This document shows positions 7,291 to 38,200 of a stretch of DNA of 64,000 bases, piece by piece; within the stretch, counting starts at the first letter, position 1, and every line of letters starts with the position of its first letter. Source of the stretch: Camelus dromedarius (Eukaryota); contig NC_087436.1 in the NCBI RefSeq assembly GCF_036321535.1, forward strand, positions 9,300,001 through 9,364,000, read 5' to 3'. The notes beneath the pieces are model-generated. The model worked only from the letters and a program-made list of their open reading frames with translations, was not told where the DNA came from and searched no databases. Both the position numbers and the translations under genes were made by a program.

Positions 7291-9169
7291 TTCAGCGTCC
7301 TGATTTCTATCTACATACAATATCTTCATGCTAAAAAGTACTGCTGGAAGATAAAAGCAAATGAGAACTTAAGTTGATACAGTTAAAATCATAAACTCAC
7401 CATCCTTTAAGTTTCTCTTATACTAATGAAGTATTTTATTTATTTAATTCTCAAGTTCAGTGTGTTAAATAGATTGATTAATACTACAACTTGAATGTTC
7501 AGAGAAAGACTTCCCACCTTTTACTGATGGAACAAAGATAGACAACAAAAAGTACTCAGAAAAACATTTAAAATTTCAATAATGTCCCGTAATAGCTTCT
7601 TTTTCCAATTGTCATGGTTTCTAGGAACTTTAATTCATATAATGATAAAAGTTAATACTTTAATTTAAAATTCTTATTTCAAGTTATCTACTATTTAAAA
7701 TAAACAAATTAATATCTGATTTGGTTTTTTTTTATTCTAATACCTAAACCCTATGAATCTTTTCTTTTCCAGGGTAGCTTCCTGGCCAGAAAAACTTGTG
7801 TGTCCATCTGACTATACCATGACCTCTATCTGACTTCTGAGTTCTGTACCCACAACCTTCTCTCAGCATTCTTTCCCTAACAGGCTTGTGTCCCAAGACT
7901 CTAGTGTTTCTTCATTTGGCACTTGTATTTGACTCAGCTTCATTTTTCCTCTCAGATTATGAATTGGTTTTATATTAGAAATTCCCTTTTTCATTCTCTA
8001 GACATACGGATGACTTTTGCATGAATGTCCTGTAAACTACTCCACAGAATTCTCCCTCCACTCACGTATTCCTTAAGCCAGTATACTACCTGTTAAATGC
8101 TGGTGCTAATAATGCCAACATGGAACTCAGCATAGACAGTTCCTTACAGATCAAAGTCTCAAATGCTCAATCACGAGCATATATAGTACCTGATGTATGG
8201 TCTTTCTCTTTTGGAAAATTATCTGTAAAAGAACTTTGTGAATTGAAATAATCAATTTTTTTTTCATGAGCTATAAAAATAAATAGAATAGTCATGGTAT
8301 GTTCCATCAGGCAGAAAATCTACTGAATGAAGCCAATGATATTGGGTTCCACTTCAACACATTCTGGAAAATTACACAATAGAGCTGTCAAAAACAAAGT
8401 CCGACTGAACTGTCATGATTGTACAAAAGCAACAATCTGAAGGACAAAGTGAGTCTTGCCTAACCCTATGACCTGCCAGGCCAAGCTTCACGTGATTTAA
8501 CTGCAGACCGTCAGGGATGAATCAGCTTTCGTGTAACGTTAACCTTCTATGACACAAGGAAGAAATGAATGCAAGGACTGTGTCACTGATAACGCAATAG
8601 AAAGCATAAAGTTGGCGTATTTTTACTATTTTCTCTAATGACAATTAAAACTAAATCAAATTTCCTTTTATGCAATGAATGAAGAAGTCAACTTCTAGTA
8701 AATTACCTGGAATAATTGATTTCTAAAAGCTGGCTTGAAGGAAGAAAGGGTATACATTTTTTATTCCAGTTTTAAGCATGCCAACTTGATTGTCTCCTTG
8801 CCAGACAGTGGCTTCAATCATCTAGGAAGCTTTGTGGGAAGCTTTACTTTGCTCTAAATTTCCATCCATTGAGGGAGAGTCAGACTGAGGCACCGGCCAT
8901 CTGACAGTTCCTTATTCCCCCCAGTTCACTACTCCTGTTGGTACAGAACTCATCCCCCTTTTATTCTGCTCTATGTTTGGTCTTTGGATGCTGATCTGTA
9001 CAGCTTGCTGAGTTGGACTTCTGCCTGCCTCTTCCTGCATAAGCTCTTGTTGCATAAGATTGTTTGAATCATCCAAAACTGCCTCAGATGTTCAATGCCC
9101 AATCTCTTGATTTCCTATTATAAACCCAGATTCATATGACAATAAAAATAAAATGTCTTTGCAGCACTT

Positions 9170-9270
9170 TAAGGGCAGGAATTTTTGTACATTTTATTCC
9201 CTGCTTTATCCCCAGTATGTAGAAAAGTACCTGACATACCTATCTATAAATATTTGTTTAATAAATGTGT
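9170..9270 (+). mobile_element. L2 3' end
   Basis: agggcagga...ctgctttatccccagtatgtagaaaagtacctgacata...ataaatatttgtttaataaatg is the L2 tail pattern. Confidence 0.75.
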
Positions 9271-10953
9271 TAACCTTTTTTCTAAATTTAGTTACTGCAT
9301 AGACTTAAATACATTCGCACCAAACATGGTATGTTCAGGATTTACCTAATAGTATCCAATTCTTGTTTCAGTTACACTTGGCCTGGCCCAGAACAGCCCA
9401 ACATCATCTGTTATGGACATAGGAAGAGAAAATTATTTTCTAAGGGTAAAATACCAGTTTAAAAAGTATGAAAGACACTAAAGTTCTAAAACCTTGACCT
9501 TAAAACTTGTAATTGAAGAAAATAAAATAAATCACACAAGAAAGATTCTTGGCGACAACTCAGGCTATACTTCTAGCAAAGGTATAAATATATCTTCCTA
9601 TTAATTCGCATTTTATCACATAATTTACACTTGGAGATTAATTTGGAAACAAAAATAGTTCAGTTTAATATTACAGGAACTAATATCAACAAGAAGTGTT
9701 TTTATCTAAAAACAGAATTATGACTTATCGGTGGATAAAACTATCCATTCTTTCCATATCTCTTATGGTGTTGATGACTATGTGTTTTAGATGAAAAGGG
9801 CATGTTTTTCAGAGAAGAATATTTAAAAGGAGATCTGTGGTAATTACCCTTATATATTCAAGACCATGGATTCTTACAGTGACTTGGAAGTTTTCATAGA
9901 TAAATGCTGGTGCAGCTTAAGTAACATTTTCTTAACTCAATAAGGTCCTCGTTTTACATGTCTAGGTAGATTTTTTGATTCTTCTCTTTGATAAGGACGA
10001 CTTCACCTCTATCATAATTATCTCATATCTGAGAAAGTAAACAGAGCAAAATAAACCAGCAAAATGCTTACCAGGGCAATTTAAACTCCCCCTCTCCTTC
10101 AGAAACCTCAAAAATGTACCCTTTAGGGCCAAGTGTGTTCTACTGACTCTTATTTGGTCAGAGTCTCTCAACCTTGCGTATGGTTTGAAATTATCCTTAC
10201 TTATCTCTCACTCTTTATTTCTCTTTTTTATTAATCTACAAAACCATTAAAAAAAAAACTGAGTGCTAATAAAATCAAGTACTGTCGACAGTTGTTCATA
10301 TTAATATTCATGAGATTCATCTTCATACTAACTAGTTTAGTTTTCATCAGATTAATGTATACTTTCTATCTTAGGGAAGAAAACATTGACAATTGGCAAA
10401 AGAAAGTGATTTTTTTTTCCCCAAACCACTTGTTTCATTAGGGGAACTGGACTTGAAGCCACCCAATCTTTAAATTATTCTATCCCTTTGAAAAATCTCC
10501 AGTGGTTAGCACAGTGACCAGTGTACAGGAAGAGATTAAATCCATGGTCAGGTAAGCTATTAAATAGATGGATGTTTGAGTAAATATTTCTGAAGTTGGT
10601 ACTTTTTTTTTCAGTAAAACATGCCTCATGTCATTGTACTGTATATATTTGCAGAGATTCATTAAATATTTTAAGTGATCAGTTTTGCTAGTGTGTACTG
10701 GAACAGGAAGAATAAGTTAGTAGAAACTCAAAAAAATTTCAACTCAAAAGGCTTTGTCATTTTCACAACTATTAATCTATTTTCCATATTGATTGATATT
10801 CAATGTGGACATTATCTAGATTACACTGGGTTATTCTCTAGTATGCTAAGGAGCAACTTTATCTGATGAAATACATGCTTACTATGACTTTATTTTGTTT
10901 GATTTATTTATATTAGTTGCACTTATAATAGTACCACATAATTTAAAGAAATA

Positions 10954-12245
10954 CAGGCATACCTTGGAGACGTTGCAAGCTTGATTCCAGACAACGGCAA
11001 TAAAGCGAATACCAAAATAAAGGGAGTCACACAAATTCTGGGAATTCCCAGTGCATTTAAAAGTTTACCCCACACTATAGTCTTAGTGCAGTAGCATTGT
11101 CTAAAAAAGCAATGTATATATCTTAATTGAAAAAATACTTCGCTAAAAATGCTAACCATCATCTGAGCTTTCAGTAAGTCATAATGTTTTTGCTGGTGGA
11201 ATGCCTTGCCTTGATGCTGATGGCTGCTGACAGATGGCGGTGTTGCTGAAGGCTGGGGTGGCTGTGGCAATTTCTTAAAATAAGACAGCTTGCCCTCCTC
11301 CTTAGTCATGGCGTCCTGGTGCTGCTAGGACTCGAACACTGGGGCATTCGTGTTGCTCTCAGCCTAGGTGAACTCCATTTCATCCAGCCCTCACTGGTGC
11401 ACCATGTAGGAATGCCTTGTGCTGGACATGACTGTGAACTTCTCAGAGAGTACTGAATGTATTCTTCTGGATGGCCAGGCTGTTATTGCCGATGAAGGTG
11501 GTGGACTTTCTTCACAGCTGGGGTGGGATGTCACAGATCACTGCTTTCACACAGTTGGGGATCTAGTTGACAAAACAGCTGTTCTTGTTTCAGAGTTAAA
11601 CACCTATACACATCTTCCTCCTGCATGGATATGTGGCCAGCCACTGAACGGGGCAGCCAACATCAGTTAGTGGTTGTGATGGGGATCACAGGCAGACATC
11701 ATGCTCTTGGAGTGAAACATCTGCAGGATGAGCTCGAGCACCTTAAGGGCCTGGTACTACTGGCTACCCCTACTGATCAGTGGGGTGAAACCAGGCATGA
11801 AGAAATGCAGGCAAGGGAAGGGCACCATGTTCACATTGTGCTCACACAGATCAGCACCAAGTTGTCCCAGGAAGTGCAGGTGATGTGGTTGGCTTTAGGG
11901 TTTTGGGGCAGATGTTATAGAAGGCATTGTTATCAGTGCAATAGGTCTCATCTGTGGTTTCTAAGAGCTGGTGGACTGAGAGGGTGCATTGTAAGGCTCC
12001 ACCACTAGTGGGAACACTTGAGCAAGGGCACCACATTGAAGGTGTGATCACTGAACACAGATGACCATCACAAATAAGATATCGACAAAAAGGTTGAAAT
12101 ATTCTGAGACTTAACCACAATGGGACACAGAGACAATGAGCAAATGCTGTTGGAAAAATGCTCGATGCCATGAACATTCAATTTGGGAAAAAAAATAGTC
12201 TGTGAAGCAGAATAAAGTTTAACACAATAAAAAGAAGCATGCATG
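10954..12245 (+). mobile_element. Tigger1-derived non-autonomous DNA transposon (TcMar-Tigger) with a beta-tubulin insert
   Basis: TA|caggcataccttggaga... Tigger1 left arm at 10954-11287. Right arm at 12046-12245 (gatcactgaacacag...aataaaaagaagcatgcatg|TA). TA dinucleotides at 10952-10953 and 12246-12247. No transposase core between the arms. Confidence 0.9.
11288..12044 (-). pseudogene. TUBB: Beta-tubulin coding fragment (about residues 166-433), heavily decayed
   Basis: The minus strand translates in shifting frames to [108 protein letters not shown], collinear with beta-tubulin. Contains stops, frameshifts and a deletion near 11880. Paralogue not resolvable. Confidence 0.95.
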
Positions 12246-13249
12246 TAGTACATAAGCCAATGGAGGGAATGAGAAGTGAAAGAATATGATTGTTTATTTT
12301 AAATTCTGTCCGTTTTGCAATTTCTGTTGGTTCTGTGTTTGCTTCATAAAGGTAAGTTACTAAAATATAACTAAATTTAAGAGTAGGCCAAAAGATAAAT
12401 TATTAGAAAAAATAGAAATATAGAACCATAATGATTTCAGATTACTTTGCCATTGTCTTTAGAATAACACTTACCTTAGAGAACTCAACTGAATATAGTA
12501 GGTGATGTTCCACGAGTGTAATTTATAAACGAAAGATGAAAAATGTTAGTCATTATTAAGATCACACCTACGGGAAAATTGACTCTACATAAAAGATTAT
12601 TGAATGAATGTACTTTTTTATGTTTTAAATGTAAGAGCAATGCTAATGATATATAGTGTAATTTTGTTAATGATCTGCCTGAGCCAATGCTTTACCTTAA
12701 CCAGCCAAGTATTGATCCCAATGAACATGAAACAATAATGCCTAATAACATACATAAATTGGAATATGAGAGGCTAGGTTTAAGATAAAAGAGAGTAATG
12801 GAAGTAGAGAACCCATTTAAGAGCCTTGACTTTACAGAGTAAGGACAAGTGGTGTGCATCAAAAATTTAATAGAATCAGATTATAAAAATGTGAGATCAC
12901 ATTAGATGATCTTTTGGGGACAATTTTGATTCTGTAAGTACAGGAAAGCAAGCCACTGTCTACTGTAGTATATAAAATAATGTGTAACCAAATATGTCTT
13001 TTTTTTCTCTAAGGAAAGTAATATTAAAAAAAACAAAAACTGGAAACATAAGGCTGCCTATGAGAATGGAATCAGCTAGAAAGCAAGGTGCTTGTGCGTA
13101 ACTTTGTAAATCAGACACTATTGTCAAATGTCTCTCTGTTCTGTGTGTGACAAAAAATAAATAAAGAATTAAGACCAGCAGTTAATCCACCAAGTTAAAA
13201 TTCTGTGTAAGCTCAGATCGGACCGTGCTTTGTTTATCCACATTTTGCA

Positions 13250-13521
13250 CATCACTCTCCCGTTATTATCTGCCGTCTACGGTGGTGACGTAAGGACATT
13301 CTTACCGTCAGACCTTGTTATTCCCTAGCCCTGTAACTGCTATTTCTATATTCCCTAGAATTCTCTTTATCTTGTCTCTTTGCCTTTCTATCCTAGTAGG
13401 CAATCATGTTGCTAGTTAACAGTACTCCAGTCCTGTTAATCATCAAATAATCTTTGTATTAAATGTTCCTTCTTCAAATTCCTGTGTGATTTCTGTTACT
13501 GACGGGACTCTGATTGTTACA
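13250..13521 (+). mobile_element. Ancient ERVL-class LTR 3' part (LTR33/LTR41-like)
   Basis: Ends attaaatgttccttcttcaaattcctgtgtgatttctgttactgacgggactctgattgttaca, like ERVL LTR termini. Confidence 0.45.
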
Positions 13522-14001
13522 AAAGTGGACTCTCCTTATCACCAGTGAAATCAATACACAAGCCCTTTCTCAGAGTTTTAGCATGATGCATTTCAACTCA
13601 CTGTAAGTTGTTGGACTGCTACTTCACAGAAGTTCTTTCAAATACTAGAACAGAATTAACTACAAAAATAGTTCTCTTTTTTGCATAGTTACATTACAAA
13701 CATTTTTCTAAGTGAGGTTTATGTGGGAAGAACATATTTATTATGCAATTGTCATTGATAGGAATTTTATTCAGATATAAATTGAGTGTGGTAAACTGTG
13801 CACATTTAACATAAAAAATGTGATGAGTTTTTAAAATTATATACTGCTATAAAATTGTCCCGGAATCAAAATAGAAGACATGCCCATTTCCCCTAAAAGA
13901 TCCCTTGTAAGATTCTTTATTAAAGTTCACTTTTCTCTTCATCTCCAATCATAAGCAACCACTGATTGTTTTTTGGCCACCATAAATTAGATTTTATTAT
14001 C

Positions 14002-14099
14002 TAAAATTATATATATATTAATTATATATAATTATAATAATATATAATTATACATAATAATTATATGTAATTAATATATATTAAAATTATATATATATA
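14002..14099. repeat. TA-rich low-complexity tract
   Basis: About 100 bp of almost pure A/T, bounded by two copies of taaaattatatatatat. Confidence 0.85.
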
Positions 14100-14571
14100 C
14101 TGAAAGAAGTCACATATATGATTTCTTTCAGTCAGTGTAATGATTTTGACATTCATCCATGTTCTTGCTTGTTTCAGAGGTTTGTTACTTTTCATTGCTA
14201 AGTATTATTCTATTGGATGGAGATGCCATAGTTGGTTTATCCATCACATCAATCCATACACACAGGACGTTTTCAAACCGAACTGCTATGAATCAATCTT
14301 TTATGAACATTCAGTTATAAGTCTTTGTTTAGACTTATCTTTTCATTTCCTTTGTGTAAATAACTTGGGACAAAATTGTTGGGTAATATGGTAGGTGTTT
14401 AACATTTTAAGAAACTGCCAAATCATTTCTTAAAATCATGTGTAATTTATATTCTCATTGACAATATATGAGTTCCTGTTTCTCCACATCTGCATCAAAT
14501 TTTCACTGCCAGTTTTAAAATTTTCACTTAAAGTAGATTTTAACAAAGACTTCATTAAATTTCTTAAGAAC

Positions 14572-35270: not shown

Positions 35271-38200
35271 GGAGAATAAAGAGCAAAGGGTATTGAAAAG
35301 GTATTTGAAGAAATAATGAATGGAAACTTTCCAAACCTTAAGAAGGAATCACATATTTAAGCACAGGAAGCACAGAGGGTCCCCAACAAGCAGAACCCAA
35401 ACAGACCTATACCAAGACATATTATAATCAAGATGGCCAAGGTTAAAGACAAAGAAATTATTCTAGAGGAAGCAAGAGAAAAATAAAGAGTTAGTTACAA
35501 GGAAACCCCCCATGAGGCTTTCAGCTGATTTCTGTACACAAACACTGCAGGCCAGAAAAGTCAGCAAAAGCAGGAAATAATAAAGATCAGTGAGGAAATA
35601 AATAGAGATTTTTTAAAAATAGAAAAATCAAACCAAGAGCTGGTTTTCTGAAAGAGTAAACAAAATTGACAATCCTCTGGCCAGGCACACCAAGAAGAAA
35701 AGAGAGAGAACACAAATAAACAAAATAAAAAAGGAAAATGGAGAAATCAGAAGCAATACCCCAGACATACAAAGTATCATAAGAGAATATTAAAAACAAC
35801 TATATGGAAACAAACTAGACAACCTAGAAGAAATGGGCAAGTTTCTGAAAACATGTAGTCCACCAAGACTGAATCAAGAGAAATAGACCACTTGAACAGA
35901 CCAATCCCTAGAAAGGATATAGAATTAACAATTAAAAAAAAAAAAAAACAACCTTGCAAACAAAAGTACAGGGCCAGATGGCTTCACTGGGGAATTCTAC
36001 CAAACATACAAAGAAGACTCAAACCAGTCCTTCTCAAACTCTTCCAAAGGATTGAAAAGGAGGGAATACTCCCAAACTCATTCTATAAAGCCACCATCAA
36101 CCCTGATACCAAAACCAGACAAAGACACTACCAAAAAGAAAATTACTGGCCAATATCACTGATGAACATAGATGCAAAAATCCTCAACAAAATATTACCA
36201 AACAGAATCCAACAGCACATAAAAAAGACCATACACCATGGTCACGTTGGATTCATTCCAGGGACACAAAGATGGTTCAACATAAGCAAATCAATCAGTG
36301 TGATACACCACATCCACAAAAGAAAGAACAAAAACCACATGATCATCTTAATAGATGCAGAAAAAGCATTTGATAAAATTCAACACCCATTTATGATAAA
36401 AACTCTCACCAAAGTGGGTATAGAGGAAACATATCTCAACATAATAAAAGCTCTTTATTACAAACCTACAGCCAGCATAGTACTCAGTGTTGAAAAACTA
36501 ACAGCCTTACCACTAAAATCTGGAAGAAGACAAGGATGCCCATTCTCACCACTTCTATTCAACAGTCTTGGAATCTCTAGCCACAGAAATCAGGCAAGAA
36601 AAAGAAGTAAAAGATATTCAAATTGGATGAGAAGAGGTAAGATTGTCCCTATATGTGGATAACATGATACTATATATAGAAAACACTAAAAGCTCCACCA
36701 AAAAAAAAAAAATTACTAGAGCTAATAAAAGAATTCAGCAAGGCAGCAAGATACAAGATTAACATACAAAAATCAGTTGCATTCTTTACACTAACAATGA
36801 TTTAGCAGGAAAAGAAAGTAAAGAAACAATGTCTTTTAAACTTGCATCCAAAACAATAAAATACTTAGGAATAAACCTGACCAAGGAGGTGAAACAATTA
36901 TACATGAAGAACTACAAAACATTGATTAAGGAAATTAAAGATGACTTAAAGAAATGGAAAGATATTCCATGCTCTTGGATTGGAAGAATCAATATTGTTC
37001 AAATGGCCATACTGCCCAAGGCAATCTACAGATTTAATGCAATTCCTATCAAATTACCCAGGATATTTTTTACAGAACAAGAACAAACTATCCTAAAATT
37101 TATATGGAATCACAAAAGACACAGAATTGCCACGGCAATATTGAAGAAAAAGAACAAAGCTGGAGAAATAATTCTCCCAGACTTCAGACAATACTGTAGA
37201 GCTACAGTAATCGAAACAGCATGGTACTGGTACAAAAACAGACTTATAGATCAAAGGAACAGAATAGAAAACACAGAAATAAATCCACAGACTTACGGTC
37301 AATTAAGTGTCAATAAAGAAGGCAAGAATATATGATGGAGAAATGATAAGTCTCTTCAGCAAGTGGCATTGGGAAAACTGGATAGCAGCATGTAAATCAG
37401 TGAACACTCCTTCACTCCATATACAAAAATAAACTCAAAATGGCTTTAAAGATTTAAATATAAGACAAGACATGATAAATATCCTAGAAGAAAATAGGGG
37501 CAAAACATTCTCTGACATAAATCTTAGCTATGTTCCCCTAAGACAATCTACCCATACAATAGAAATAAGAGCAACAATAAACAAACTTATTAGCTTGTGC
37601 AGAGCAAAGGAAGCCATAAGCAGAACAAATCAACAACCTATGGAATGGGAGAAAATATTTGCAAATGATGTGACTGACAAAGGCTTAATTACTAGGATGT
37701 AAAAACAGCTCATACAACTTTAATAACAACAACAAAAACCAAACACCAACCCAAAAATGGGCAGACCTAAACAAGCAATTCTCCAGTGAAGACATACAGA
37801 TAGCCAATAAGCACATGACTGAATGCTCAGTATCACTAATTATCAGAAAAATGCAAATCAAAACTACAATGAGGTATCATCTCATACCAGTCAGAATGGC
37901 CATCATTCAAAAGTCCTTGAATGATAAATGCTAGAGAGAGCGTGGAAAAAGGGAAACTTCCTACACTGCTGGTAGGCATGTAGTTTGGTGCAGTCGTTAT
38001 GGAAAACAGTATGGAGATTTCTCAAAAAACTAAAAACAGACCTACCATATGACCCAGCAATTCCACTTCTGGGTATATGTCTGGAGGGAACTCTATTTTG
38101 AAAAGATGCATGCACCCCAATTTTCCATAGCAGCATTGTATGCAATAGCCAAGACATGGAAGCAACCTAAATGTCCATCAGCAGATGAGTAAAGAAAGAA

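Follow-up and report, generated by a model that had tools for sequence, protein, structure and literature searches.

The segment from 10,954 to 12,245 of the window analysed here (64,000 nucleotides of Camelus dromedarius NC_087436.1, at 9.30 Mb of contig C1) is confirmed to consist of the arms of a single Tigger1-type (pogo, DDE_1) transposon, one from either end, around a decayed insert of beta-tubulin coding sequence. The composite is a single copy in the 2.3-Gb assembly of 171 contigs that was searched, and nothing points to its amplification or to a Pack-type family. We give a probability of roughly 0.45 to the reading that it is the one-off product of double-strand-break repair after excision of an active Tigger1, and not a transposon family.

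The left arm occupies positions 10954..11289 (336 bp, plus strand), begins at the terminus CAGGCATACC, and has 71–77% identity to all seven of the other copies with which it was aligned. The right arm, at 12046..12245 (200 bp, plus strand), reaches the opposite terminus and aligns to 11 of 11 other copies, an alignment in which it also displays a 28-bp deletion of its own. Between the arms, at 11290..12045 on the minus strand, lies the 756-bp TUBB4B-like fragment of beta-tubulin exon 4, which was recognised by blastn, tblastn, Pfam and a phylogenetic tree. A TA dinucleotide, read directly from the sequence, adjoins each outer side of the composite, at 10952..10953 (half of the TA target-site duplication) and at 12246..12247. 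The original prediction had described Tigger1 arms with TA at both outer ends, and this is borne out by the homology to the seven left and 11 right copies as well as by the sequence itself; the part lengths that it gave (335, 760 and 200 bp) were correct within a few bases.

The terminal TA on the right side is visible in seven of the 11 aligned copies (L023, L024, L025, L027, L028, L030, and L032), while for L026, L029, L031, and L033 it is not visible in that alignment. Target-site duplication of TA and short terminal inverted repeats are given as hallmarks of Tigger elements (PMC9219625). Of the 37 inverted pairs that a repeat search detected in the composite, the 25 longest include no terminal one of the roughly 20 bp typical of Tigger elements; by eye its two ends have eight of their first 11 bases in common, the right terminus being mutated. 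Decay has put the composite's terminal inverted repeat beyond the reach of the repeat search, and the termini were set by homology to other copies. The arm searches returned 666 (left) and 622 (right) first-look candidates, which identifies the arms as the ends of an abundant repeat. The subfamily is taken to be Tigger1, in keeping with the pogo-type features.

A full-length relative was located at 6.0125–6.0153 Mb of contig C10. It is 2,758 bp long, has TA on each side, and contains both arms colinear and co-oriented, with a DDE_1 transposase open reading frame (PF03184, 77.9 bits, E value 9e-22) on the strand opposite to the arms; it is a sample of one, and seems to have about 340 bp beyond the 2,418-bp consensus. 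The tubulin insert and the transposase gene of this relative share a strand. Thus the tubulin sequence, originally called antisense, is so relative to the orientation of the arms, but it runs on the same strand as the transposase gene that was lost. A chance juxtaposition of two unrelated Tigger fragments beside a tubulin pseudogene was considered and rejected, because the arms are colinear and co-oriented, both reach a terminus with TA, and the interior is absent.

The surroundings are AT-rich, with 34.5% GC over the window and a GC fraction of 0.28–0.35 in the flanks as compared with 0.46–0.51 in the insert. No Rfam family was found within 9000–14500. RVT_1 was the only Pfam family encountered when 60 of the 92 stop-to-stop open reading frames of at least 75 amino acids in the window were profiled. 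No host gene around the element was identified among these same 60 of 92 reading frames.

By comparison with five intact paralogues, the insert is minus-strand beta-tubulin coding sequence corresponding to about amino acids 165–437, and it lies wholly inside the last exon (exon 4). The results from blastn of the insert against the genome, in which all 10 first-look candidates were scored, include nine other tubulin places at 67–75% identity, with E values down to 1e-85; upon re-alignment, the same places have 64–69% identity. In tblastn, a TUBB4B-like exon-4 reading frame matches the insert (E value 1e-42) in two frames with in-frame stops. The six-frame genome search with Pfam Tubulin_C (PF03953) gives 44.2 bits at the insert against a cut-off of 26.6, with two stops inside the match; no Pfam family matched two short in-frame stretches of the remnant. 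The similarity scores, as computed from the sequence, place the predicted tubulin relationship far beyond chance.

The closest gene is L010 on contig C10 (69% identity, 396 bits), with several paralogues scoring nearly as high (369 bits). Its C-terminal tail, which ends in EEEGEFEEEAEEEVA, is presumably of the TUBB4B type, the paralogue names being assigned from C-terminal tails. The TUBB3 and TUBB4A genes were not among the matches, and 'TUBB4B-like' accordingly designates the closest among the sampled genes. Relative to L010, the insert has seven deletions (one of 56 bp) and three insertions, together with stops and frameshifts; it retains six CpG dinucleotides where L010 has 52, and its GC content is 50.6% as against 60.7%. 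In a maximum-likelihood tree the insert adjoins L010 (support 90/93); its terminal branch measures 0.41 changes per site, as compared with 0.11 for two other beta-tubulin pseudogenes. Other beta-tubulin retro-pseudogenes do occur in this genome, namely the intronless L015 and the decayed L016. On contig C1, the DNA and Pfam searches found no other tubulin-like sequence, and the parent of the insert therefore lies in trans.

At the left border, all seven of the other copies part from the composite directly after ...AAGACAGC. The other copies continue as ...AAGACA(A/G)CAATGAAG into the transposon interior, while in the composite ...AAGACAGC is followed immediately by TTGCCCTCCTCC. The tubulin genes read ...AACTCGCCCTCCTCC at this point, so that at most one base (C, 11289) is common to both sources. 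The right border is blunt, with tubulin homology extending to ...GAAGGTGT (12045) and Tigger homology starting from GATCACTG (12046). Microhomology is thus minimal (1 nt at the left joint, none at the right one), and it is uninformative with respect to template switching. The alignments with the seven left and 11 right copies place no base of the transposon interior beside the insert on either side, which upholds the earlier view that the interior was replaced and not interrupted. Poly-A or poly-T and 3' UTR are likewise absent at the insert, and the last approximately nine codons and the stop codon are missing, with Tigger sequence directly abutting. That the insert has neither poly-A nor 3' UTR and ends inside the coding region at both ends, as first noticed from the letters, was seen again in the sequence and the alignments.

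Against the 2,418-bp Tigger1 consensus (length from Supplementary Data 1 of Tan et al. 2021, PMC8277862), about 1.83–1.88 kb of interior is missing (76–78%), with breakpoints at about 0.14 and 0.92 of the element length. In the C10 relative, 2,167 bp lie between the points that match the two breakpoints, in a copy that is about 340 bp over the consensus. Junctions of internal deletions are present in seven of the 11 right-arm loci, six of them with an identical junction, and in L005 a deletion begins about 10 bp from the left breakpoint of the composite. The Tigger1-type family has therefore demonstrably produced and amplified internal-deletion derivatives. The left arm of the composite extends about 95 bp farther inward than the common deletion junction, which indicates that the composite came from a long element and not from the short deletion family.

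Copy number was assessed from both sides of the junctions. Genome-wide, the left junction (121 bases) is spanned by the composite itself and by none of the other 39 among the 40 scored of 666 candidates, which match the Tigger part alone; for the right junction (286 bases), with 40 scored of 622 candidates, the composite is again the only one to span, the match beginning with the Tigger part in the remaining 39. In searches of this kind, short perfect Tigger matches could outscore a second copy of 70% identity, and for this reason the tubulin side was also searched. A genome search with Pfam Tubulin_C, in which all 75 candidates were scored, yielded 60 matches, 59 of them to places other than the composite. 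These 59 fall in 46 loci (L034–L079) and three places already among the DNA-search loci; for three of the matches, the exon concerned adjoins the examined locus of the same gene but lies slightly beyond its limits. Sensitive blastn with the whole element, applied with 1.5–2.5 kb of flank, found Tigger arms at none of the nine DNA-search tubulin places and at none of the 46 Pfam loci. Because the DNA search reached tubulin pieces of 67–75% identity, a sister copy of similar age should have shown. The suggestion in the original prediction that a Pack-type element was mobilised and amplified in trans is not supported by these results, in which the scored junction candidates gave only the composite itself and the arms were at none of the other tubulin loci examined; occurrence of the junctions at this locus alone is the outcome that the prediction itself had named as a refutation.

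The composite is not a product of misassembly. Of 150 31-mers sampled from 10800–12400, 94–97% are present in 19 of the 23 sequencing rows listed, which derive from nine studies and carry two organism labels, and these shares rule out an assembly chimera; one of the 19 rows may be the source sample, and independent presence is judged from the word shares.

The relative ages of insert and arms were estimated from their decay. The divergence of each arm was measured against the leave-one-out majority of the other copies. By this measure the left arm of the composite differs at 48 of 320 sites (15.0%), as compared with 10.7–14.6% for the seven other left arms, and the right arm differs at 31 of 181 sites (17.1%), as compared with 1.8–12.8% for the 11 other right arms, the ages being rough in that the arm ancestor derives from seven and 11 copies chosen by similarity to the query, with CpGs already lost. 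The arms of the composite are at the old end of the sampled copies, and it follows that the family was still moving after the composite's copy arrived. For the insert, the ancestral state was taken from columns invariant in the five paralogues, with CpG sites excluded, and 110 of 551 (20.0%) of the non-CpG sites have changed. Because the insert began far richer in G+C than its AT-rich surroundings, the comparison was split by base type. At ancestral A/T sites, the changed fraction is 39/255 (15.3%) in the insert and 45/321 (14.0%) in the arms; at ancestral G/C sites, it is 71/296 (24.0%) in the insert and 34/180 (18.9%) in the arms. For both base types the difference between insert and arms is within about 1.3 standard errors. 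On this rough dating, insert and arms have undergone equal decay, and the capture is not detectably, and certainly not by much, younger than the transposon copy. The excess at G/C sites of the insert (24.0% against 18.9%) may reflect a source that was already decayed or a slightly different history.

Structures of this category were described in 2021, when Tan et al. (Nat Commun 12:4280, PMC8277862) reported 370 Pack-TIRs, mostly single-copy, from 100 animal genomes of which 57 were mammalian. A Pack-TIR is defined there as host sequence of 100–5,000 bp between two parts of one TIR transposon, and 115 of the 370 are in TcMariner elements. In Supplementary Data 1 of the same work, 26 rows match 'Tigger1', the transposon being Tigger1 in 21 of them and Tigger17a in five; the species in these rows include alpaca, bushbaby, gibbon, macaques, and lemurs, and a human RAB6A-Tigger1 case is named in a supplementary figure legend. 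The novelty of kind that the original prediction had contemplated is thereby weakened, as Pack-TIRs, those of Tigger1 included, had been catalogued in that publication. Tan et al. conclude that most single-copy Pack-TIRs arose via transposition-independent gap filling, on the evidence that the gap has a median size of 4.6% of the transposon, that breakpoints are skewed toward the interior, that 56.9% of cases are at most 15 kb from the parent, and that 22 of 33 human cases originated after the transposon had been silenced (PMC8277862). A transposition-dependent route is allowed in that text for 'a small proportion' (PMC8277862).

The camel composite resembles the animal Pack-TIRs of that catalogue in being single-copy, in its TcMariner/pogo class, in its mammalian host, and in the gap-filling origin proposed for them. 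The catalogued examples are young (parent identity of at least 90%), mostly in cis, with small gaps, and mostly formed after transposon silencing, whereas the camel composite has about 69% identity to a parent in trans, has lost about 77% of its transposon, and contains an insert as old as its shell. Structurally, its 756-bp insert is enclosed by arms that both reach the termini, where at least 10 bp of each of the consensus terminals was required, and the ratio of insert to parent length (757/812, or 93%) falls inside the 80–120% range used by Tan et al. The filter for a unique parent of at least 90% identity stands against a value here of 69% with close paralogues, a shortfall that arises through age and not through structure; as a consequence of this identity requirement, an old case such as the camel composite could not have been listed (PMC8277862). 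With regard to the retroduplicate criterion, the fragment is inside exon 4, where intron positions are uninformative. The camel composite is thus an unusually old and unusually deep-gapped example of the category. Among the titles and abstract openings returned by a literature search, there was no report of a Tigger1–tubulin composite.

Comparison with other systems is also instructive. As in plant Pack-MULEs and Pack-CACTA elements, the termini enclose a fragment of a host gene, and for those elements capture is ascribed to template switching in repair; the plant elements, however, belong to a different superfamily and are mobile, often multicopy, with target-site duplications at several loci, whereas the camel composite is single-copy with no evidence of movement. 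Abortive gap repair also generates deletion derivatives, such as the MER2-type derivatives of Tigger1, Ds-del elements, and deletion copies of P or mariner that contain filler DNA. The composite is like these internal-deletion derivatives in that it retains both termini without the interior, but in place of nothing or a few filler bases it holds 756 bp of foreign coding sequence. It also recalls an L1-mediated beta-tubulin processed pseudogene in being decayed, intronless in appearance, derived from a highly expressed gene and situated away from its parent, whereas the insert lacks poly-A, 3' UTR and its own target-site duplication, breaks off within the coding sequence at either end, and replaces its target.

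Several origins have been weighed against this evidence, and the earlier proposal of gap repair with template switching is the one that fits it best. In the sequence of events that we favour, a full-length Tigger1 copy would have been resident at a TA site, and, with the family still active, this copy would have been excised from one chromatid and the gap re-synthesised inward from the sister copy at both ends. Synthesis would have stopped early, having covered some 340 bp from the left end and some 200–240 bp from the right, and the nascent ends would then have been bridged by about 810 bp copied or captured from a TUBB4B-like exon 4. The template would have been the gene on another chromosome or its cDNA, joined nearly without homology; as the fragment is wholly within exon 4, DNA and cDNA templates are indistinguishable. 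The product would have kept the termini and TA flanks but not the transposase or the rest of the missing 77% or so of the element; never amplified, it would afterwards have decayed neutrally in gene-poor surroundings rich in AT. Four features together point toward such excision-coupled abortive repair: a very large gap, near-terminal breakpoints, a parent in trans, and insert and arms of equal age. The same product could also have been formed independently of transposition, through a spontaneous break in a resident, immobile Tigger1, long or shortly after its insertion, followed by resection of about 1.8 kb and patching with tubulin DNA or reverse-transcribed mRNA by end joining or template switching, and we consider this possible without thinking it probable. 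A fragile site or a replication problem would have caused the break, at the same level of possibility, and the outcome would qualify as a templated-sequence insertion or, by the definition of Tan et al., as a single-copy Pack-TIR. Most single-copy Pack-TIRs of animals arise in this way, and in 91 of 97 primate cases outgroups have the orthologous transposon but lack the duplication (PMC8277862); the single-copy status of the composite agrees with such an origin, the near-blunt joints are compatible with end joining, and in humans breaks have been described that received insertions templated from distant loci (PMC5110952). It accounts less well for the loss of 76–78% of the element as against a median of 4.6% in that class, for breakpoints that are near the termini and not inward, and for a parent that is not in cis, given that 56.9% of the cases of Tan et al. 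are at most 15 kb from theirs (PMC8277862). Moreover, the insert has decayed like the arms, so that the event would have been needed early, within the period of Tigger1 activity. At a single locus, a spontaneous break with long resection in an inert copy gives an identical product.

A further alternative is retrotransposition, in which L1, by its ordinary or its endonuclease-independent route, inserted a TUBB4B retrocopy into the interior of a Tigger1, and later independent deletions took the 3' end with the poly-A, the 5' part, and the flanking interior. Beta-tubulin retro-pseudogenes are present in the genome (L015 and L016, above), the fragment is wholly in the last exon, as is usual for 5'-truncated retrocopies, and the composite has suffered other deletions, one of 56 bp within the insert and another of 28 bp within the right arm. 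This origin is nonetheless unlikely, as it demands at least two extra large deletions, each running exactly to the border between tubulin and Tigger, with zero bases of the approximately 1.8 kb of interior remaining, and as 3' UTR and poly-A have gone along with the stop codon and the approximately nine codons before it. The original prediction had already argued against an ordinary L1 retrocopy, and the absence of poly-A, 3' UTR and residual interior sustains that judgement. A single replacement event is favoured because an insertion followed by at least two border-exact deletions is less parsimonious. The composite might, on the other hand, be a genuine Pack-type element, non-autonomous and moved in trans by the transposase of Tigger1, with a family that exists or existed. 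Both termini and the TA flanks were kept, the composite arose while transposase was probably still available, and shorter deletion derivatives were amplified, one junction being common to six of the 11 right-arm loci. Against this, no second copy was found in 2.3 Gb by a search that recovered tubulin pieces of 67–75% identity, and the arms are absent from all 46 Pfam loci and the nine DNA-search places, which is near to a refutation for this genome and makes such a family highly improbable. A single cut-and-paste move of the composite, with no gain in copy, may have occurred.

Taking excision-coupled repair as the preferred reading, the composite may quite possibly be a fossil of transposition-coupled capture in an early placental mammal, by a template switch onto a TUBB4B gene or cDNA in trans while the family was still moving; as such it would be among the oldest Pack-TIRs recognised and a rare transposition-dependent case, perhaps one that moved once without leaving a second copy. 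The composite itself is dead and neutrally decayed in a gene-poor, AT-rich region, and no function is expected of it. Its value is that of one dated data point on the origin of Pack-TIRs. If the capture was coupled to excision, mammalian pogo/Tigger transposons could acquire host coding sequence in their own gap repair, as is thought for the Pack elements of plants, in contrast to a merely passive, later role as fragile sites, and the age range of such captures would reach back to the time of Tigger1 activity.

The coding content of the window, which has a GC content of 34.5%, was examined with Pfam in the 60 longest of its 92 open reading frames of at least 75 aa. The sole match was an RVT_1 reverse-transcriptase domain (E value 3.7e-25) in an open frame of 267 aa on the forward strand (35859–36659), which is presumably the remnant of a LINE, and no host exon was recognised among these frames. 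The left junction of the composite element is spanned by a stop-free frame of 133 aa on the reverse strand (10926–11324), which extends from the tubulin remnant into the Tigger arm. Pfam gave no match for this frame, which in view of the decay is probably fortuitous.

Two other beta-tubulin pseudogenes were recovered from the same assembly. The intronless L015 (C26, 16.155 Mb) has an N-terminal signature which we take to be TUBB3-like, while L016 (C18, 32.86 Mb) is placed in the tree with a TUBB-like gene (support 100/100). Tigger arms are absent from both, and their branch lengths of 0.11, compared with 0.41 for the composite, mark them as much the younger. The genome also contains eight tubulin-like Pfam matches in seven places, spaced 30–70 kb apart on a single contig (C29, 2.885–3.204 Mb). 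Most of these have in-frame stops, and the array looks like a tandemly duplicated block bearing a tubulin pseudogene.

Alignment of 11 loci fetched from the camel's own genome with the right arm revealed an internal-deletion junction common to six of them (L025, L028, L029, L030, L032, and L033), in which position ~240 of the left arm is joined directly to a point ~17 bp upstream of the composite's right breakpoint. This junction marks a short form of the composite's transposon that has been amplified, and we assume this form to be MER2-like. In the same alignment, L024 has a different internal-deletion junction again. A further Tigger1-type copy, L005 (C30, 17.657 Mb), has an internal deletion whose start in the alignment lies ~10 bp past the left breakpoint of the composite; from there the copy continues in another part of the interior, within which short repeated motifs occur. 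The proximity of this deletion start to the composite's breakpoint may reflect a recurrent break region around position 340.
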